Virus record (IMG/VR): IMGVR_UViG_3300042562_001768
Length of the DNA stretch: 15,563 nucleotides
Direction: 5' to 3' (one strand)
DNA from: a virus
Shown here: positions 1,024 to 15,563 of the stretch, piece by piece
Layout of the letters: every line of letters begins with the position of its first letter
How positions within the stretch are numbered: the stretch's first letter is position 1
The notes under the pieces: model-generated
What the model was told of the DNA's origin: nothing
Seen by the model: only the letters and a program-made list of their open reading frames with translations
Databases searched by the model: none
Made by a program: the position numbers and the translations under genes

Positions 1024-1511
1024 GCCTTCCCACCAACAGCCGTATGAAGGGCAAACGGGGCGAACTGGACGCTGCCGCGCACCTCACTGAGTTGACCAGG
1101 TGGAAGTGGGAGCGCACCGCGCAACGCTGGGGCAAGGCCACGGCGGACGTTTGGTGCCCGCGCGCGCCCGCTCTGTTCCAGTTGCACGTGGAGGTGAAAC
1201 TGTACGGGCGCGGACTGGCCAAGCTTCACACCGCGGCAGCGGCGTATCCGCTGGTGGTCACGCGCGATGGCCTGCACATCTGCGAGCTCAGCCGCCTGCG
1301 CGTCCAACTGCTCAGGCTTGGCCCGCCGAACGTCACCTTGAGCGTTCACAACACGACCGCCGCCTTCATGCGCCAGGCAGTAGCCGACGCGTCAGGCGTC
1401 ACGCCGCTCGTCCTCATGCGACAGGACCGACACCCGTGGCTGGCAGTCTGGCGAAGCGAGGACGAGGACCGAGTCGCCTACCAACTCGACCAGGTGTGGA
1501 ATGAGACGTGA
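1020..1511 (+). CDS. PD-(D/E)XK-type nuclease, Holliday-junction-resolvase-like (Hjc/RecU-like pattern)
   Basis: ATG at 1020 overlaps the upstream TGA at 1021-1023 (ATGA). The N-terminal region MKGKRGELDAAAHLTE...ADVWCP...FQLHVEVK fits the G-x-x-x-E ... D ... (hydrophobic)3-E-V-K pattern of Hjc-like PD-(D/E)XK nucleases. Judged by eye only. Confidence 0.5.
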   Translation: MSLPTNSRMKGKRGELDAAAHLTELTRWKWERTAQRWGKATADVWCPRAPALFQLHVEVKLYGRGLAKLHTAAAAYPLVVTRDGLHICELSRLRVQLLRLGPPNVTLSVHNTTAAFMRQAVADASGVTPLVLMRQDRHPWLAVWRSEDEDRVAYQLDQVWNET

Positions 1512-1776
1512 GCCCCAATGCATCCACGCGCGCAAGGCGCCCGTCGTGCGGTCAGCCCACACTGGCAAGGGCAGTGGTCGACCGATGTTTCGGTTGAGTC
1601 GGACCACGCGCGCCAACCATCCGATGTGCCAGGAGAACTGCGGTCGACCATCGACCGAAGTGCATCACATCGTTCCTTGGTCCGAGTCAGTCGTGCTGCG
1701 GCTCGACCCAAATAATTTGGTCGCAGTTTGCCGTGACTGCCATGAGCGTTTGGAGGCGCTGCGGCTGACCAAGTAG
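1501..1776 (+). CDS. HNH endonuclease
   Basis: Protein contains C-x2-C ... EVHHIVP ... NNLVAVCRDCHERLE, the HNH zinc-finger and catalytic His pattern. ATG at 1501 overlaps the upstream gene by 11 nt. The true start could be a later in-frame Met (1585 or 1624). Sits immediately upstream of large terminase. Confidence 0.8.
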   Translation: MRREPQCIHARKAPVVRSAHTGKGSGRPMFRLSRTTRANHPMCQENCGRPSTEVHHIVPWSESVVLRLDPNNLVAVCRDCHERLEALRLTK

Positions 1777-1800
1777 CGATCCGTTTTTCAATTATGAGCC

Positions 1801-1822
1801 CCCCCCTATAGCCCCCCTATAG
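1801..1822. repeat. Tandem direct repeat, 2 x cccccctatag, in the HNH-terminase intergenic region
   Basis: Read directly: cccccctatag at 1801-1811 and again at 1812-1822, preceded by two more C and followed by cgagggg. Confidence 0.8.
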
Positions 1823-1868
1823 CGAGGGGTTTGAAGTACCTACGAGGTCAACCCACGGATAAACGCCG

Positions 1869-1911
1869 CCAATGCATAAGGAAAACACCCCCAATGCATA
1901 AGAAAACGCCC
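1869..1911. repeat. Tandem imperfect direct repeat (22 + 21 nt) overlapping the terminase ribosome-binding site and start codon
   Basis: ccaatgcataaggaaaacaccc (1869-1890) is followed by ccaatgcataagaaaacgccc (1891-1911). The ATG of the second copy (1894) is the terminase start; AAGGA at 1878-1882 lies 11 nt upstream. Confidence 0.7.
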
Positions 1912-3609
1912 ATCAGACGGTCACGCAAAGCGCCCGCCGGAGCGCTCCAGATTGCGGACGCCTACGCTCACGAAGCGCTGAAGGGCAAGCGCTACAACAC
2001 CCGCATCCGCGCCTTCAGTTCCCAGTGGCTGGCCGCGCGGGCGGCACCAAAGTCGGCTGGTTACGTGTGGGATGAGGAGCGCCTGACCAGCCTGGTGGAG
2101 TACGCGCGGGAGCGGTTCAAGATCACGCTCCTGCCGTGGCAGTACCTGGCCTTCGCCACGCTCGTTTCGTGGCGCGATCAGGCCGACCTTCCGGTGGTTC
2201 GGGTGTTCGCGATACAGGTCGCGCGGGGTGCGGGGAAGACGGAGATGGTGGCGATCCTGGCGTCTTGGCTGGTCGAGTGGACCGCGCGCGCGGGTCGTTC
2301 GCCGATCGAGATCGTGGTGCTCGCGACGCAGATGGAGCGCGCCAAAGACGTGTGGCTTCGGCAGAAGGTCAGCCTCGCGGACGACCCGTCCTGGCGCCTG
2401 GTCGGTGGTCTGTCGTCGCTCGTCATTGCCGCGGCCCACCACGCTGGCGGGGTGGTCAAGTGCAAGCCATCGACCCCTAAGAACGCGGACGGAATCCTGC
2501 CCACGCTCGTCGTCTTGGACGAGGCGGCGCGCATCGAAGACGAGACCTACGCGCGCGCGCTCAGTTCGATCAGCAAGGTGCCAGGCTGCCAGGCGCTGAT
2601 CGTTACGACGCCGGACAAGGATCAGCGCCGCCGCGGATACGGCACGACCATCGGACTGCTGGAGCGCGCCTACGACGAGAACACTTCGCCGCCGCCAGGG
2701 ATCGCCGGGATGATCTTCGGCATCGACACCACCGATCGACCGGACGATCCGGAGGCGTGGTACAAGGCGCACCCCAGCCTCGGCATCACGAAGCAGCTCA
2801 GCGACTACACGCTCGGCAAGGCGCTGCTCTTGGATCCCGGCGCACCGAACGATCGCGACGAGTTCTACACCCAGTTCCTCGCGACCTTCACGGATGACCT
2901 GGCCGGTGCCATGCCGCTAAGTCTGTTCGACGCGTGCGTCGAGGACTGGGATCTCTCCGACTTCCGCGGCTTCCCGGCAGTGGTCGGAGTCGACTTCAGC
3001 CAGGGCGGTTGGAGCGGTCAGCAGACGGACCTGACCTCGATCAATGTGTCGGTGTGGGACGGCGTCCGCATCCGCTCCAGGTCGTACCACTACTGGGCCG
3101 GGACCAACATCGAAGCGGACGAAGTCAAGTGCCGACAGCCGCTGCGCGAGTGGCGGGACGCGGGTCTCTTGGAGGTCTGCGGCAACACCATTGACTACTC
3201 GCTACTGGAGGCGCGGACCATCGCCATCGCGTCGATCGTTGACCTGCGGCACTGGGTCGCGGACCCAGCAGGGAAGGCGCCCGCCTGGTGCGAGGCGATG
3301 GAGAAGCGACACGGATGGCGCTGGTCGCGCGCTCCTCAGTCGCACATTTACATGGGCTCGGCGTGGGCAATTTGGAGCGACGCCGTGCGCGGTCGGCGCA
3401 TCCAGTTCGCACCCGATCCGGTGCTCCGCGCGAACCTGTCGCACACGCGCGCGGTGCCAACCGACCGAGGTCTGAGCGTGCCAAGCAAGGGGCGCAGCAC
3501 CAGCAACATCGACGCCGTCACCGCGTGCTGCATGTGCATCAAGGTGCTCAACGATCGCGAGCTCATGACCGAGAGTCTGTACGGCGACCCGGGCAAGATC
3601 TCCTTCTGA
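1894..3609 (+). CDS. terL: Terminase large subunit
   Basis: Long ORF with a P-loop-like segment VFAIQVARGAGKTEMVAILASWLV and a Walker-B-like LVVLDEAARIEDE, followed by a C-terminal nuclease-sized region. ATG at 1894 has an AAGGA Shine-Dalgarno; the ORF-track start at 1831 is a TTG extension. Followed by portal and capsid genes. Confidence 0.9.
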   Translation: MHKKTPIRRSRKAPAGALQIADAYAHEALKGKRYNTRIRAFSSQWLAARAAPKSAGYVWDEERLTSLVEYARERFKITLLPWQYLAFATLVSWRDQADLPVVRVFAIQVARGAGKTEMVAILASWLVEWTARAGRSPIEIVVLATQMERAKDVWLRQKVSLADDPSWRLVGGLSSLVIAAAHHAGGVVKCKPSTPKNADGILPTLVVLDEAARIEDETYARALSSISKVPGCQALIVTTPDKDQRRRGYGTTIGLLERAYDENTSPPPGIAGMIFGIDTTDRPDDPEAWYKAHPSLGITKQLSDYTLGKALLLDPGAPNDRDEFYTQFLATFTDDLAGAMPLSLFDACVEDWDLSDFRGFPAVVGVDFSQGGWSGQQTDLTSINVSVWDGVRIRSRSYHYWAGTNIEADEVKCRQPLREWRDAGLLEVCGNTIDYSLLEARTIAIASIVDLRHWVADPAGKAPAWCEAMEKRHGWRWSRAPQSHIYMGSAWAIWSDAVRGRRIQFAPDPVLRANLSHTRAVPTDRGLSVPSKGRSTSNIDAVTACCMCIKVLNDRELMTESLYGDPGKISF

Positions 3610-3674: not shown

Positions 3675-4796
3675 ATGAACCGTCTGTTCAAGCTCTTCGG
3701 CTTCAAGTCTGCACCGATGAATATCGGTTGGGACTCTCCGTCGAACTACGTCCGAGCAGACGTCGCGGCGCTGCCGTCCGTGCAGCGATGCATGAACCTG
3801 ATCGCGAACGATGTCGCGCGCTGCCCACTGGTGGTGCGCGACGCCGAGCAGATGATGGTCGAAGACTCGACGATCACCGCGCTCTTTACGAATGCGGCGC
3901 AGGCCGAGCTAAGCGGAACAGACTTCCGCCGATGGATGGCTTCGGAAGCGCTGCTGTCTGGCAACGCCTTCGCGCAGATCGTGACCGACTCGATGGGCCA
4001 GCCCGTCGCGTTGCGTCCGCTGGCGAGCTCAGCCGTCAGCCTGAACGAAGACAGTAACGGCGTGCTGCATTGGACCTACTCCGGCACCGAGATCGACTAC
4101 GCCTCGATGCTGCACTTCAAGGGTGCGCCGAGTCCAGGGAATCCGTACTGGGGCACAAGTGTCCTGAGCGCTGCGGCGACAAGCCTCGACGCAGTCGCGC
4201 AAACCGAAGCAGCCTGGAACGCATACACCCGGAGCGGCGGATACGGCAAGCTTGTCTTCAGTCATCCCGGCGCTCTCCAGCCTGCGACCCGCGACGCCAT
4301 GCGGACCGCCTTCATGTCGGGACACATGACTGCCGCCGCAGCGGGCACACCGATCTTCGTCGGCGAAGGGATGACCGTGACCGCGCTCTCGCCGTCGTGG
4401 GGCAAGGACATGATCGAGCTCCGCGCCGCGGGCGCGCGCGTGGTCGCGAACATGTTCGGCGTACCAGCCGCGTACCTCGACATGAGCGAGGCGCGCACGC
4501 AACCAGAGATCGCACAGTCGTACGTCTCGTCGTGCTTAGAAATCTGGGCCACGACCTGGGAAGCGGAGATCAGTAACAAGCTCTTGCGACCTGGTCTTCG
4601 TGTTCGTTGGGACTGGTCGCCTGTCTTGGAAGGAGACTTCCGAACCGCTGGCAAGGCGTACGGAAAGTTCGTCGAGGTCGGCGTGCTCAGTCCGAACGAC
4701 GTCCGCGTTCGCCTTGGCTACTCGCCGCTGCCTGGTCTCTGGGATCCGAGGCCAGTGATGAGTGGCATCACCATCGAATCGGACGGTCTGCAATGA
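3675..4796 (+). CDS. Portal protein (HK97-like family)
   Basis: 373-aa ORF directly between terminase and prohead protease; MNRLFKLFGFKSAPMNIGWDSPSNYV... First in-frame ATG after the terminase stop; the ORF-track start at 3288 lies inside terminase. No clear Shine-Dalgarno, so the start is uncertain (alternative ATG at 3717). Confidence 0.8.
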   Translation: MNRLFKLFGFKSAPMNIGWDSPSNYVRADVAALPSVQRCMNLIANDVARCPLVVRDAEQMMVEDSTITALFTNAAQAELSGTDFRRWMASEALLSGNAFAQIVTDSMGQPVALRPLASSAVSLNEDSNGVLHWTYSGTEIDYASMLHFKGAPSPGNPYWGTSVLSAAATSLDAVAQTEAAWNAYTRSGGYGKLVFSHPGALQPATRDAMRTAFMSGHMTAAAAGTPIFVGEGMTVTALSPSWGKDMIELRAAGARVVANMFGVPAAYLDMSEARTQPEIAQSYVSSCLEIWATTWEAEISNKLLRPGLRVRWDWSPVLEGDFRTAGKAYGKFVEVGVLSPNDVRVRLGYSPLPGLWDPRPVMSGITIESDGLQ

Positions 4797-6403
4797 TGCG
4801 AGAACTCCGCGCACAACTGGCACCGACTACCGACGGGACGGTCCGCGGATACGCGGCGCTGTTCGACTCTTGGTCGCTGCCGATCACCGAGCGCGGACGC
4901 ACGTTCCGCGAACGCATCAAGCCGGGCGCACTACAGCCGGACGGGAACGTCTCACTGTGGTGGATGCACGACCACACCGACCCACTCGCGAACACGCGCA
5001 GCGGATCGCTCACGATTACAGAGGACGCGAAGGGGATCGCATTCGTAGCCGACTTGGGTACGAGCGCGCGCGCGGACGAGATCCGCGACCTCATTCGCCG
5101 CGGGGTGGTCGACCAGATGTCGATCGGCTTCGTCGCACTCTCAGATATCTGGGACGGCAATACGTCCCGCACGATCACTAAGGCCACGCTCCATGAGGTG
5201 AGTTTGGTCGAATCGGCTGCGTACCCCGGTACGTCAGCAACCGTCCGCAACCACCAAAGGAAACCCGCTATGTCCGTCAAAGAAGATCGTGCTCGCATCG
5301 CCGAGCTCAACGCTGAATACAACACCGCTACCGATGAGCGTCAGTTCGCCATCATGGACGAAGTCGCAGAGTGTGAGGAGCGCATCGCTGGCGCCCAGGC
5401 TGCATTCACCAACCGCGCCGCCACACCGTTGGCAGTCGCACCGTCGGCACCGCTTGCCGTCGTTCGTCGCATCACGCCTCCAGTCCGTGACGAGCAGCGC
5501 GAGTGGTTCCGCACTGGCTTCAAGCAGAACCGATCCATCGGTCTGAGCGTGACGGGTGGCAACGCTACCGCCGGGCAAACTTTGCCGACCCTGAGCGGTG
5601 AGTTCATCAAGGCGCTCGACCAAGAGTCCGTGATGCGTAGCCTCGCAACCGTCGAGACCCGTGGACTCGATACCGATATCCAAGTGATCGGCACGCGCCA
5701 GACCGCTGTTCTGCTGGCAGAAAAGGCGGCGTACACATCGACCGACTTCACCGCGACCAAGCTCTCTTTCAAGAGCTACAAGTCCGGCGCGCTGACCGAC
5801 GTCACGGAAGAGGCCTTGCAGGACACCGTGTGGGATGTTGCGAGTCAGGTAGTCAGTGAACACGGTCGCGCTCACTCGCGACTCTGGGAGAACTACTACG
5901 TAAACGGTACCGGCACTTCCCAGCCGCAAGGCGCGTTTGCTGCGACCTGGACAACGACGTACACCACGGCGGCTGTTGGCTTGCCAACGGTGGCGGACTT
6001 GGTCACGGCTGCGTACAAGTTGCCAACCCCGTACCAGGCGAACGCGTCCTGGCTCATGCACTCAACTGTTTGGGCTGCGGTCGTCGGCAGTGCGGCCAGC
6101 GGCAAGTACCTCCTGAACGGTGAGAACGGGAACATCCTCAAGGACGGGGCCGTCGCTCTGTTCCTCGGCAAGCCTGTCTACCTCAGCGAGTGGGCACCAT
6201 CGGCAGCAACCGCTGCTACGGTGTCGTGCCTGTACGGTGACTTCAAGGCGGGCTACCGAATCATCGACCGCTCGATGCTGAGCTTCACCGTTGATGATGT
6301 GTCCCAGATGTCTAACGGACTCATCCGCTACACCAGTCGTATGCGCTCCGACGCCAAGGCCGTCGACGCGACCGCGATTGTCCCGGTCGTCATCAAGACC
6401 TGA
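4793..6403 (+). CDS. Prohead (capsid maturation) protease fused in frame to HK97-type major capsid protein; internal ribosome-binding site and ATG at 5270 may also give stand-alone capsid protein
   Basis: ATG at 4793 overlaps the portal stop (ATGA). The N-terminal ~159 aa (VRGYAALFDS...WWMHDHTD...VDQMSIGFVALSD...LHEVSLVESAAYPGT) match the HK97 prohead protease pattern. From MSVKEDRARIAELNAEY onward it is a coiled-coil delta region followed by a capsid-protein-like body ending ...DATAIVPVVIKT. No stop codon separates the two parts. AAGGA at 5257-5261 precedes the in-frame ATG at 5270. Confidence 0.85.
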   Translation: MMRELRAQLAPTTDGTVRGYAALFDSWSLPITERGRTFRERIKPGALQPDGNVSLWWMHDHTDPLANTRSGSLTITEDAKGIAFVADLGTSARADEIRDLIRRGVVDQMSIGFVALSDIWDGNTSRTITKATLHEVSLVESAAYPGTSATVRNHQRKPAMSVKEDRARIAELNAEYNTATDERQFAIMDEVAECEERIAGAQAAFTNRAATPLAVAPSAPLAVVRRITPPVRDEQREWFRTGFKQNRSIGLSVTGGNATAGQTLPTLSGEFIKALDQESVMRSLATVETRGLDTDIQVIGTRQTAVLLAEKAAYTSTDFTATKLSFKSYKSGALTDVTEEALQDTVWDVASQVVSEHGRAHSRLWENYYVNGTGTSQPQGAFAATWTTTYTTAAVGLPTVADLVTAAYKLPTPYQANASWLMHSTVWAAVVGSAASGKYLLNGENGNILKDGAVALFLGKPVYLSEWAPSAATAATVSCLYGDFKAGYRIIDRSMLSFTVDDVSQMSNGLIRYTSRMRSDAKAVDATAIVPVVIKT

Positions 6404-12949: not shown

Positions 12950-13707
12950 GTCTGCTTCGGTGTTGCTGCGGTAGCGCAACCTGTGCATCCTGTCCATCGT
13001 TACCAGGCGACTGGTCGACGCGGGACTATCGTTTGTTCATACCAGCAGTCAAGCCTGTTGGATATGGTCGCGCGAGTTCAGTGCCGAGCGGTCTATACAC
13101 CGGGCCCTGCACGCCAGCGGATCCGTACTGGAACTTGGCAGAGTGTGCATTCGACTTTACCACTGGCTCGCTGTACTACGTCTATTCTCGACTCGCAAAC
13201 TGCGAGCCCTTTCCAGAAGCTTGCGGCGAAGTCTTAAAGTTCCCGCGGGAGATCGGTGGCTTCTATACGGACAACCTTGTCCCGTCGATTACGTTCTCTA
13301 CGCAGATTGCCACGCGCACATACAACCAAACAGGCGACGTTTCATATTTCATCCAGGCGGACGTATCGCGATGCTGGGGCGGATGGGCTGGGTGTGAGAG
13401 TTGCACCAACCGAACCAAGGTCAGCCTCTACTACTTTTTTGGCAACAACTTCACATACAACGACAACTGCACAAACCATCCTGCTGGTGTTACAAAGACT
13501 GTGGAGCTGGAGTATCTCTCGAATCCTTACGCCGCAAGTGAAGGCATCGGAAAAACTTGCTACCTCAGAACCTGGAAAGTGAGCCCTGGGCCGACAGCCT
13601 TCTGCTACCCGGAAACAGGTCAATATGGCTGCGCTGATCCTTGCGTCCTTGGATCGTGTTCGTTCTTTGGATCAAGCAACTTTCCCTCAACGGTAACAAT
13701 CGTATGA
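12946..13707 (+). CDS. Cysteine-rich protein (18 Cys in 253 aa), unknown function
   Basis: ATG at 12946 overlaps the upstream stop (ATGA); the ORF-track start at 12748 is an upstream extension. N-terminal MSLLRCCCGSATCASC cluster and Cys spread through an aromatic/Asn/Thr-rich body. G+C at third codon positions visibly lower than the head genes. Confidence 0.6.
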   Translation: MSLLRCCCGSATCASCPSLPGDWSTRDYRLFIPAVKPVGYGRASSVPSGLYTGPCTPADPYWNLAECAFDFTTGSLYYVYSRLANCEPFPEACGEVLKFPREIGGFYTDNLVPSITFSTQIATRTYNQTGDVSYFIQADVSRCWGGWAGCESCTNRTKVSLYYFFGNNFTYNDNCTNHPAGVTKTVELEYLSNPYAASEGIGKTCYLRTWKVSPGPTAFCYPETGQYGCADPCVLGSCSFFGSSNFPSTVTIV

Positions 13708-13910
13708 AGATCCCAGGACAGATTGAGGCGTCGGAACATCAACCGCCCGCGCGCATAGGTCTCGGCGACGCCGTGGCAGCAGCCACAAAGGCTGTCGGGG
13801 TCAAGCCTTGCGGCGGATGTGCCAAGCGCCAGGCGGCGATGAACCGGGCGACGCCAGCCTGGGCGCGGCGGGCGCTTGGTTGGTGGTCGCGGCATTTCGG
13901 TGTACCGTGA
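13704..13910 (+). CDS. Small protein (68 aa) with a GDAVAAATKAVGVKPCGGCAKRQAAMNR motif
   Basis: ATG at 13704 overlaps the upstream stop (ATGA). The CxxC-containing segment looks like a conserved small-protein motif, but I cannot name the family. Confidence 0.45.
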   Translation: MKIPGQIEASEHQPPARIGLGDAVAAATKAVGVKPCGGCAKRQAAMNRATPAWARRALGWWSRHFGVP

Positions 13911-13914
13911 CCAC

Positions 13915-14220
13915 ATGTCCACAATCCGTCAAGCTCTTCGGGGAGTCGATCGCCGCCGCGATGAGTGGTGGATGGTTCGGCGCGACTCGGACCCGCCAGG
14001 GGTCTGGGCTTTGACGCTCGATCCGAGTGCCGGGGACTGGGACTGGCGCGTCCGCGCAGTGACCAATATGCCTTTCATGAAGCGGCGCATAGCCTCGGCA
14101 AAGATTCTCTCCGATAAGCAGGGAAGATTACTTGAATTGCGACGAATGGTCGATAGGATGCGCGGCGCGATGGTGGCGCGGGGGGATGACGCGGCTGCGA
14201 GGACTCCGAGTGGAGTTTAA
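13915..14220 (+). CDS. Hypothetical protein (101 aa)
   Basis: First ATG after the upstream stop; MSTIRQALRGVDRRRDEWWMVRRDSDPPGVW... No Shine-Dalgarno seen. The 3' half is AT-richer and contains promoter-like hexamers, so the coding assignment is tentative. Confidence 0.4.
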   Translation: MSTIRQALRGVDRRRDEWWMVRRDSDPPGVWALTLDPSAGDWDWRVRAVTNMPFMKRRIASAKILSDKQGRLLELRRMVDRMRGAMVARGDDAAARTPSGV

Positions 14221-14274
14221 CGTAACAGCCATAGCCGCGTCTCCCGATGGTCACCTCGCGCGGGAGATTCGCGC

Positions 14275-15027
14275 ATGGATGGCATCACGAAGCTTGCTGC
14301 GGCACTGGTCGCAGCCCAGAAGGATCTGACAAACCCCAAGTTTGATAAGCAGAATCCGCACTATCACAGTAAGTACGCATCACTGGCAGGCATTATCGAC
14401 ACGGTCCGCCCGGCGCTCTTAAAGCACGGACTGGCGGTGGTGCAACCGATCGAAACGGGGACCACATCCGGGACGATTCAGGTCCACACGATCCTGATCC
14501 ACACCTCCGGCGAGTCGATCAAGTCGACCCAGTCGGCACCGGCCCCAGGCGACCCGCAAAAGTTGGGCAGCCTGGTCACGTACTTGCGCCGCTATGGACT
14601 GTCTGCGCTGCTCATGCTGGCAGGGGACGACGACGACGATGCGAACGCCGCCGCGGCACCAACGCAGAAGACCCAGCAAACGCTTGAGCGCCACGTAGAG
14701 GCGTCCGCAGCGCTCTCCGGTGTCGAGAGAGCCATCGCAACCGCAGCCGCTCCTAGGGCATCCAAGGCGCCCGCGCGCGCTGCCGCCGCGAAGGGCATCC
14801 GAGTCGACGCAACGGTGAGCAAGATCGAGGAGCGCACCTCGGCGGCTGGCAAGGAGTACGCATGGATCCACACCGAGGACGCGGGGCGCCTCACATCGTT
14901 TGACAACATCGACGGGATGTCGGTCGGCGCGCGGTACACGTTCCTCCTCCGGAACGACCGCGACGGCAACCCGACGATCGTGGACGACTTCAGCGCTTGC
15001 GTCTCCGACGAGGAGATCCCATTCTGA
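14275..15027 (+). CDS. erf: ERF-family single-strand annealing protein (recombinase)
   Basis: N-terminal NPKFDKQNPHYHSKYASLAGIIDTVRPALLKHGLAVVQ, then DPQKLGSLVTYLRRYGLSALLMLAGDDDDD, which resembles the conserved core of ERF proteins. GGGAG Shine-Dalgarno 8 nt upstream of the ATG. Confidence 0.75.
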   Translation: MDGITKLAAALVAAQKDLTNPKFDKQNPHYHSKYASLAGIIDTVRPALLKHGLAVVQPIETGTTSGTIQVHTILIHTSGESIKSTQSAPAPGDPQKLGSLVTYLRRYGLSALLMLAGDDDDDANAAAAPTQKTQQTLERHVEASAALSGVERAIATAAAPRASKAPARAAAAKGIRVDATVSKIEERTSAAGKEYAWIHTEDAGRLTSFDNIDGMSVGARYTFLLRNDRDGNPTIVDDFSACVSDEEIPF

Positions 15028-15563
15028 TGCGCGTCGCCAAGCAACACATCCACATGGGAGAGATCTTCCGCTGCTCCGGACTTGCTCCGATGCAGCGTTA
15101 CCTACTCATGGCAATAGCCGATTACGGGCTCCCCGCCTGGCCGTCCCAGGCGCGCCTCGCAAACAAAACTGGACTCTCGCGATCCAGCATCAACACGATG
15201 GTGTCAGAGTTACGTCGCCTCGGCGTCCTTACGACGGAAGGTCGGGGCAAGTCTTTGACCTATCGAATTGACCTGTCTGGGAAGGGTGAGGTGTCGTCCG
15301 CAGCGACACCTCACCTGTCGTCCACAGCGACACCACCTGTCGTCCACAGCGACAGCAGGTGTCGCCCACAGCGACAGGGATCAGAACTCTCCAAGGAACT
15401 CTCCAATGAACCCTCCCAGTCCGCGGTGGAAACCGCGGGGGGGTGGGAGGTCTTTGGGGAGGTCATGCAAGCCATCGAACGGCACGATCCGCGAGCCCAG
15501 GGAGACCTGCCCGGACAGCGCCGCGTCGTGCGTCGGCGCCTGGATGAACTCGGCATCAAGGAC
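15027..15563 (+). CDS. Winged-helix DNA-binding protein, putative replication initiator with embedded iterons; truncated by the window edge and completed by 2..280 (229 aa in total)
   Basis: ATG at 15027 (TGATG overlap with erf stop). N-terminus MQRYLLMAIADYGLPAWPSQARLANKTGLSRSSINTMVSELRRLGVLTTEG is HTH-like. The frame is open to the window end and continues through the duplicated 127 nt. The Ser/Thr/Pro-rich linker is encoded by the iteron array. Confidence 0.65.
   Translation, partial: MRVAKQHIHMGEIFRCSGLAPMQRYLLMAIADYGLPAWPSQARLANKTGLSRSSINTMVSELRRLGVLTTEGRGKSLTYRIDLSGKGEVSSAATPHLSSTATPPVVHSDSRCRPQRQGSELSKELSNEPSQSAVETAGGWEVFGEVMQAIERHDPRAQGDLPGQRRVVRRRLDELGIKD
15285..15376. promoter_or_regulatory. 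Array of four 17-bp palindromic iteron-like repeats (tgtcgYccRcagcgaca), candidate origin of replication or operator
   Basis: Units at 15292-15308, 15316-15332, 15338-15354 and 15360-15376, spaced 24/22/22 bp. Each is an inverted repeat tgtcg-N7-cgaca. The first is extended to 12-bp arms (ggtgaggtgtcg / cgacacctcacc, 15285-15315). Followed by an AT-richer 11-bp direct repeat gaactctccaa x2 at 15384-15406. Confidence 0.55.

Follow-up and report, generated by a model that had tools for sequence, protein, structure and literature searches.

A probable lambda-type replication origin within the initiator-like gene of a very small uncultured tailed phage

The DNA considered here is the IMG/VR virus record IMGVR_UViG_3300042562_001768, a stretch of 15,563 nucleotides (nt) referred to in its entirety as the window, and our subject is a block of tandem repeats at about 15285-15450 together with the gene in which the block is embedded, a gene whose product resembles phage replication initiators. 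The two ends of the window are exactly identical over 127 nt (1-127 and 15437-15563), and therefore the window is a circular assembly with a true genome length of 15,436 bp. The phage thus has a complete, very small, circular-mapping tailed-phage genome, in which all genes lie on the same strand and guanine plus cytosine (GC) make up 62% of the bases. The initiator-like gene runs across the circular junction: its 5′ part (codons 1-179) occupies 15027-15563 on the plus strand, where its translation gives matches to Pfam HTH_36 and to PHROG families, and its 3′ end (codons 180-229 and the stop codon) occupies 128-280 on the same strand. The joined open reading frame (ORF) has 690 nt, encodes 229 amino acids (aa), and is the same as the gene on four independent metagenomic contigs (L001-L004), which are 100% identical to the window in this gene and so carry no comparative signal. 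Its ATG overlaps the stop codon (ATGA) of the gene directly upstream, which encodes an ERF recombinase (14275-15027; Pfam ERF, E = 4.9e-24).

A repeat finder detects a 22-nt unit in four copies at 15288-15377, with start spacings of 24, 22, and 22 nt. The 17-nt core TGTCGNCCNCAGCGACA is present in four exact copies, starting at 15292, 15316, 15338, and 15360, and occurs nowhere else in the window. With up to three mismatches allowed, the core gives seven matches, whereas 200 dinucleotide-preserving shuffles give a mean of 0.99, and none of the 200 reached seven. The preliminary description of this DNA, made from its letters alone, had reported four tandem palindromic units about two helical turns apart, and this is confirmed. 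Iteron 1 (15292-15308, core TGTCGTCCGCAGCGACA) is part of a perfect dyad that extends to 15285-15315, with 12-nt arms at 15285-15296 and 15304-15315; iterons 2 (15316-15332) and 3 (15338-15354) have the identical core TGTCGTCCACAGCGACA; and iteron 4 (15360-15376) has the core TGTCGCCCACAGCGACA. None of the four is assigned a strand. Each is a hyphenated inverted repeat TGTCG-N7-CGACA with arms of 5-7 nt and a spacer of 7 nt, and the half-sites alternate in orientation and recur every 11-12 bp. The array corresponds to nt 266-350 of the 690-nt gene (38-51% of its length), i.e., to residues 89-117. A period of 22 nt puts successive units into different frames, and they cannot represent a peptide repeat. 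The genome-wide search for further copies that the preliminary description had proposed finds the core in the four-unit array only, and the looser pattern TGTCG-N7-CGACA with at most one mismatch adds two sites (885 and 8341), against a chance expectation of 1.18. The first of them, the near-iteron GGTCGTCCGTCGCGACA at 885-901, which differs by one mismatch and lies in an 83-aa ORF about 1 kb downstream, was set aside as falling within that expectation.

On the 3′ side of the iterons, the sequence is organized in a different manner. The conserved motif GGATCAGAAC (15378-15387, plus strand), whose general form is GGAT(C/T)(A/C)(G/T)AAC, is overlapped by three tandem 12-nt units, GAACTCTCCAAG, GAACTCTCCAAT, and GAACCCTCCCAG (15384-15395, 15396-15407, and 15408-15419, plus strand; 100, 92, and 83% identity), which form a candidate DNA-unwinding element. 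An AT-richer 11-bp direct repeat had been described at this place; the repeat exists, although its unit is 12 nt long, it has three copies, and it is only moderately AT-richer, the 40 nt 3′ of GGATC having a GC content of 0.53 vs. 0.64 for the gene. The strand asymmetry of this stretch is clearer, with A+C reaching 0.70 and G only 0.12. There follow a GC-rich inverted repeat, CCGCGGT-ggaa-ACCGCGG (15421-15438, no strand), with wider imperfect arms at 15412-15450, and a G-run, GGGGGGGTGGGAGG (15437-15450, plus strand), which encodes the conserved Gly-Gly-Trp opening the C-terminal domain of the protein, so that the element, previously taken to end at 15410, has to be extended to 15450. A single-strand fold of the block shows much more structure than folds of its shuffles (z = -7.25) and leaves the A+C-rich stretch unpaired between hairpins. 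A slightly longer segment at 15437-15463 (identical to 1-27), GGGGGGGTGGGAGGTCTTTGGGGAGG, contains several G-runs, and in the relatives described below glycine is consistently encoded by GGG at this place in spite of the high GC; the G-run may thus itself be constrained as DNA, for instance because it bounds the bubble or could form a G-quadruplex.

Relatives of the 229-aa protein are difficult to find. A word-index protein search returned near-identical proteins only, a single-protein search of IMG/VR returned only contigs with 97-100% identity, and neither tblastn of the protein nor megablast of window positions 13500-15563 gave a match among 50,697 deposited phage genomes. Among 1.84 billion representative proteins, searched exhaustively with HMMER, there were 117 matches, about 25 of them full-length at 30-42% identity, and the related contigs measure 15.4-16.9 kb. 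In the family alignment both domains are conserved and the linker between them is not, and nearly every linker has internal peptide echoes of its own. For comparison at the DNA level, nine distant relatives (30-42% protein identity) were fetched, and two more, including L024, were added from a scan for the DNA motif. Every one of them carries 3-5 dyad-symmetric units of 17-19 bp, with a period of 22-24 bp, at the same mid-gene position, and the half-sites themselves differ, falling into eight types over the 11 loci (TGTCG, TGCGCAC, TGCGTCAC, TCGGCA, CTGTAGC, TCGCTCA, GGTGTCAC, and AGCGCAC). In six loci (L007, L008, L010, L012, L013, and L016) the dyad centers lie exactly 9.5, 31.5, 53.5, and 76.5 nt upstream of GGATC; the automatic scan missed the 9.5 center in L012, whose fourth unit is visible in a separate repeat comparison. 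The window has the same offsets except for the outermost, 77.5, and its iteron 4 is centered 9.5 nt before GGATC, as in all relatives with this close geometry. The similar half-sites TGCGCAC and TGCGTCAC pair with the similar recognition helices SRRCVQ and SRRTVQ, a correspondence noted by eye in two loci.

The motif GGAT(C/T)(A/C)(G/T)AAC beside the iterons yields the peptide G-S-E in the window and in L008 and L018, (R)D-P/Q-N in six loci, and G-I-L-T-N in L013, and all three frames are thus covered. The retention of one motif in three reading frames, together with the 22-nt period, indicates selection on the DNA, with the linker peptide as a passenger. When the window is compared with two relatives at 3-8% DNA divergence, the linker-coding block has changed least within the gene, by 2.3-2.6%, the winged-helix part differing by 4.3-5.5% and the part for the C-terminal domain by 6.9-9.2%. 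Over ten pooled loci, the 40 nt after GGATC contain A, C, G, and T at.35,.38,.15, and.12, compared with.19,.32,.34, and.15 in the genes overall, and (G/T)AAC stands at +6, again at +18 to +20, and once more at +30 to +33, which marks three units of about 12-13 nt. In eight of ten relatives, no 36-mer of the gene is less stable than the one directly after GGATC, a run of at least five G is found in nine of ten, and a GC-rich inverted repeat starts at +30 to +45 in all ten loci, each with its own sequence, the individual repeats being weakly above background, as about 10% of random windows typically do as well.

Two variants of the array were observed among these contigs. In L015 (8250-8290) three standard dyad iterons are present, and the place of the fourth holds another tandem repeat, GCAACGC, in three or four copies. 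In L005 (768-1313; compared with window 15312-15355), which is about 95% identical in DNA, exactly one 22-nt unit, iteron 2 or 3, is missing, leaving three iterons and an initiator frameshifted to a 181-aa product. The allele may be genuine, either defective or phase-variant, or the repeat may have collapsed during assembly.

The protein itself is built from two domains. An AlphaFold2 model based on 23 family members has a winged helix at residues 1-82 (predicted local distance difference test, pLDDT, >90), a disordered linker at about 85-140 (pLDDT <50), and a five-helix C-terminal domain at 144-229 (pLDDT >95). The DNA repeat block is the linker-coding segment between the two confidently modeled domains, with the iterons at residues 89-117, so that their assignment to the linker between a helix-turn-helix (HTH) N-terminus and a C-terminal domain, proposed earlier from the letters, is borne out. 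Residues 19-66 match Pfam HTH_36 (PF13730) above threshold (29.9 bits vs. a cutoff of 25, E = 4.9e-7), a family also precomputed for the relatives, and the C-terminal domain matches no Pfam family. Among the 13 PHROG matches at E ≤0.01, 12 belong to the replication module, namely ten replication-initiation families, one Ren-like, and one primosomal. The best, phrog_270 (3.7e-13), covers residues 19-129 and reaches past the HTH, and the families annotated as “replication initiation O-like” (phrog_391, phrog_678, and phrog_345) score 2e-8 to 6e-8 over the N-terminal 130 residues. Hence, the earlier naming of the gene as initiator-like holds; the gene stands after the ERF gene and before the gene for a RusA/PDDEXK-like nuclease. 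More generally, the N-terminal 110-130 residues match the HTH_36-type initiators phrog_270, phrog_1032, phrog_391, phrog_678, and phrog_345 (E from 3.7e-13 to 6e-8); these profiles are 280-380 aa long and are matched over their first third to half only, the window protein being shorter (229 aa) and its C-terminal domain unmatched. A distant homolog, in L018, has the same PHROG replication-initiator matches. Some gene calls contain a separate 83-aa C-terminal protein from an internal start (P0003), which is not conserved in the relatives and is probably a gene-caller artefact.

We consider, at a probability of roughly 0.8, that the repeat block (about 15285-15450) serves this phage as its vegetative replication origin, located inside the gene of the initiator that would recognize it. 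Most likely it is a lambda-type origin in the linker-coding part of a gene belonging to an uncharacterized HTH_36-type initiator family of small uncultured phages. The comparison with lambda was made directly on the annotated record J02459, in which the 900-nt O gene contains four annotated iterons of 18 bp at nt 349-433 (39-48%), with spacings of 20, 24, and 23, and then an A-rich stretch on the coding strand. In both lambda and the window, the central part of the initiator gene carries four tandem hyphenated dyads of 17-19 bp, separated by about two helical turns, with the same order, relative position in the gene, and strand polarity, and in both an A-enriched, strand-asymmetric stretch follows on the 3′ side, which in the window is only modestly less stable. 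It is known that ori-lambda lies centrally in gene O and consists of the iterons, four in lambda and six in Shiga toxin (Stx) phages, and an AT-rich tract (PMC7466680); iteron number thus varies among relatives in lambda as it does in the window family (3-5). In lambda O, a flexible linker joins the N-terminal domain, which binds DNA, to the C-terminal domain, which binds P, and an O dimer on each iteron gives rise to the O-some, by which the AT-rich region is destabilized (PMC6022878). The modeled plan of the 229-aa protein matches this order of domains. The lambda-O-like arrangement proposed in the preliminary description is therefore supported by the layout of J02459 and by distant relatives that keep the architecture with changed repeats and the adjoining motif in three frames. 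The arrangement itself is familiar and the protein family is new; the functional analogy to lambda is close, and membership in the O protein family is not established.

Several observations limit the likeness or weigh against an origin at this place. The window protein stays below the threshold of Pfam Phage_rep_O (PF04492; 14.7 bits vs. 28.7, E = 0.047, residues 39-75), and hhalign of the family profile A1 against lambda O gives a probability of 13% (E = 0.002) over the HTH only. Unlike in lambda, the C-terminal domain is without a Pfam family, and no P-like, DnaC-like, or DnaB-like loader gene was found immediately 3′ of the initiator-like gene by Pfam or PHROG; with no such helicase-loader partner found, the recruitment step of any lambda-like mechanism has no recognized component here. 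The unwinding candidate is A+C-rich at a GC content of about 0.5 and not truly AT-rich as in lambda, in a genome of 62% GC, and its loss of stability is modest, the window 36-mer taking second place within the gene and about place 390 among the 15,436 of the genome (top 2.5%). As further differences from lambda, the period is here a strict 22 nt, so that the loss of one unit shifts the reading frame, and the GGATC motif, triple 12-mer, GC palindrome, and G-run make up a fixed downstream module. Iteron geometry is looser in L015, L017, and L018. A GC-skew analysis, the cumulative form of which had been suggested as a check, gives no origin signal at the repeats either in the sliding profile or in the detrended cumulative curve on the 15,436-bp circle, whose extremes lie at 8.2 and 13.7 kb; the skew is uninformative because all genes lie on one strand and the genome is tiny. 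Finally, residues 17-71 match Pfam MarR_2 (29.6 bits vs. a cutoff of 27), and the best sequence and fold matches among solved structures, covering 60-90 residues, are ArsR/MarR-type (ArsR/SmtB/MarR) regulators. The preliminary description had held that a match to a transcription factor family with no replication role would speak against an initiator, and such a match is nominally present; it concerns the generic winged helix only, on which HTH_36 scores too. A winged helix of this generic kind means that homology by itself falls short of proving an initiator.

Two other types of origin share some of these features. In iteron plasmids such as pPS10, mini-F, R6K, and RK2, with the initiators RepA, RepE, and π, initiator repeats spaced about 22 bp apart adjoin an unwinding element of short repeats, and the initiator is a winged-helix protein. 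Plasmid iterons lie outside the rep gene, are usually not dyad-symmetric, and are bound by monomers of Rep proteins with two winged-helix domains (Rep_3). The window shares the phasing of about 22 bp, the adjoining unwinding candidate of short tandem repeats, and the winged helix, and differs in that its dyads lie inside the gene, that Rep_3 gives no match at E ≤0.1 in the Pfam search, and that the model has a single winged helix. In Escherichia coli oriC, the initiator is DnaA and the unwinding element consists of three tandem 13-mers beginning with GATC (GATCTnTTnTTTT). The window likewise has three units of 12-13 nt beside initiator sites, the first starting at GATC, a likeness we regard as a lead only; unlike oriC, its unit GAACTCTCCAAG is far less AT-rich than GATCTnTTnTTTT, and its initiator is not DnaA.

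By analogy with lambda, dimers of the 229-aa protein would bind the four dyad iterons through their N-terminal winged helices, and the 22-24-bp phasing would place all sites on one face of the helix. The resulting nucleoprotein complex could then strain the adjoining, less stable A+C-rich triple 12-mer until it melts, with the GC-rich palindrome and the G-run possibly confining the bubble, and the helical C-terminal domain would subsequently recruit host replication proteins. Recruitment from the host is proposed because the phage encodes no recognized helicase, loader, primase, or polymerase. The linker would serve as a disordered passenger, its sequence being set by the DNA element. What we observe are the repeats, their geometry and its conservation with changing sequence, the DNA-level constraint, the domain structure, and the family matches; that the protein binds the repeats, that the DNA melts, that host factors are recruited, and that the block acts as an origin is inferred.

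Another way to read the locus is as an operator array, in which a winged-helix regulator acts as a roadblock or autoregulator within its own gene and has no role in replication. The MarR_2 match and the resemblance to ArsR/SmtB/MarR repressors of solved structure agree with this, as do the dyad-symmetric sites, which are typical of operators. However, operators sit at promoters and not in the middle of a coding region, and a promoter and terminator scan around the initiator-like gene found nothing at the repeats. The PHROG matches are nearly all to replication initiators and extend over residues 19-129, past the HTH, and a winged helix with a 55-residue disordered linker and a separate helical domain is unlike a MarR or ArsR dimer, a compact regulator fold of about 100-150 aa without further domains. 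Moreover, an operator would leave the GGATC motif, the three low-stability units of about 12 nt, and the GC palindrome at base-pair-fixed distances unexplained, and the genome would be left without a recognizable replication function. A pure operator is thus unlikely, and autoregulation is possible as an extra, secondary role of the initiator.

It is also conceivable that the repeats are a pac site and the protein a small terminase subunit that recognizes a site in its own gene. Small terminases of about 150-230 aa with an N-terminal HTH often do so, no small terminase gene was recognized in the genome, and an HNH gene stands directly before the gene of the large terminase subunit (TerL). Yet neither Pfam nor PHROGs gives a terminase small-subunit match, as against ten replication-initiator families, and the model is without the oligomerization core or beta-barrel typical of small terminases. 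In the window five genes separate the gene from TerL, and in L018 the homolog opens a rightward early operon about 7 kb upstream of TerL, beside a divergent operon with ERF and Cro/CI-like HTH genes. We accordingly regard packaging as very unlikely. Still less weight is given to a partition site, i.e., a centromere-like array on a plasmid-like prophage whose winged-helix protein would bind it as a centromere. Iterated repeats make up centromeres too, the centromere-binding winged-helix proteins AspA and TubR are among the weak fold and sequence matches, an integrase is absent from the genome, and a single-protein search of 185,579 species genomes found no prophage copy. On the other hand, no partition NTPase of the ParA, ParM, or TubZ type is encoded, the AspA and TubR matches are no better than those of any other winged helix, and the low-stability triple 12-mer module would be unexplained. 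Lastly, a Ser/Thr/Pro low-complexity linker maintained at the protein level, or a neutral slippage product without DNA function, would agree with the disordered and compositionally biased linker and with the unit-deletion variant, but is effectively refuted by the motif kept in three frames and the base-pair-exact dyad geometry in relatives with unrelated linker peptides, in addition to a 22-nt period that puts the palindromic units in different frames and to the block being the slowest-evolving part of the gene.

If the repeat block is the replication origin, a probable origin and its initiator have been located for very small uncultured tailed phages that have no otherwise recognizable replication genes. 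It would be a case of a cis element ruling a coding region, in which the module is conserved to the base pair, the overlapping frame drifts through all three possibilities, and the peptide serves as a disordered tether. A more far-reaching proposal, which we put forward tentatively and consider rather doubtful as a whole, is a minimal single-protein lambda-like replicon of an undescribed initiator family in uncultured tailed phages of 15-17 kb, with a base-pair-rigid scaffold made up of four phased dyads, GGATC, three 12-mers, the GC palindrome, and the G-run, a frame-indifferent linker, a C-terminal domain recruiting the host helicase without a P-type loader, and gain or loss of a unit that changes the origin and frameshifts the initiator at once. 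If this were true, unit gain or loss such as that of L005 would amount to a built-in on/off coupling of cis and trans functions. The cassette of initiator gene and origin, about 700 bp with interchangeable iteron specificities, could give orthogonal minimal replicons, provided that a host is found. The current understanding of replication initiation is unchanged by the result, from which an origin scaffold that is rigid to the base pair and read in three frames, as well as a replication module apparently made of one protein, emerge as the most useful by-products.

The remaining genome follows the order ERF, initiator-like gene, small ORFs, RusA/PDDEXK-like nuclease, HNH endonuclease, TerL, portal, protease-capsid fusion, and head and tail genes. 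No helicase, loader, primase, or polymerase was recognized among the genes of the 15.4-kb genome, the initiator-like gene being the sole recognized replication gene. The ORFs that follow it (277-1023; 136, about 31, and 83 aa) match no Pfam or PHROG family, and a helicase loader or small terminase, if one exists, would be hidden among them. The HNH endonuclease gene (1501-1776) directly adjoins TerL (region 1501-3609) with no recognizable small terminase gene between them, which is unusual for HNH-associated packaging modules. A 536-aa ORF at 4793-6403 is a prohead protease (Peptidase_S78) fused to the major capsid protein (Phage_capsid), and its best match among deposited phages, at about 30% identity, is the 16.5-kb “induced prophage” record LR881103. 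GATC is over-represented and not avoided in the genome, with 117 occurrences where base composition predicts about 54, and there are 23 copies of GGATC; the excess may be informative on host restriction or methylation systems, and for the same reason GATC is unlikely to be a special methylation site. Between 11000 and 13600 the GC content falls to 0.51-0.57, compared with 0.60-0.68 elsewhere, and this segment, whose ORFs of 438, 100, and 253 aa are without a family match, may be a horizontally acquired host-interaction or lysis module.

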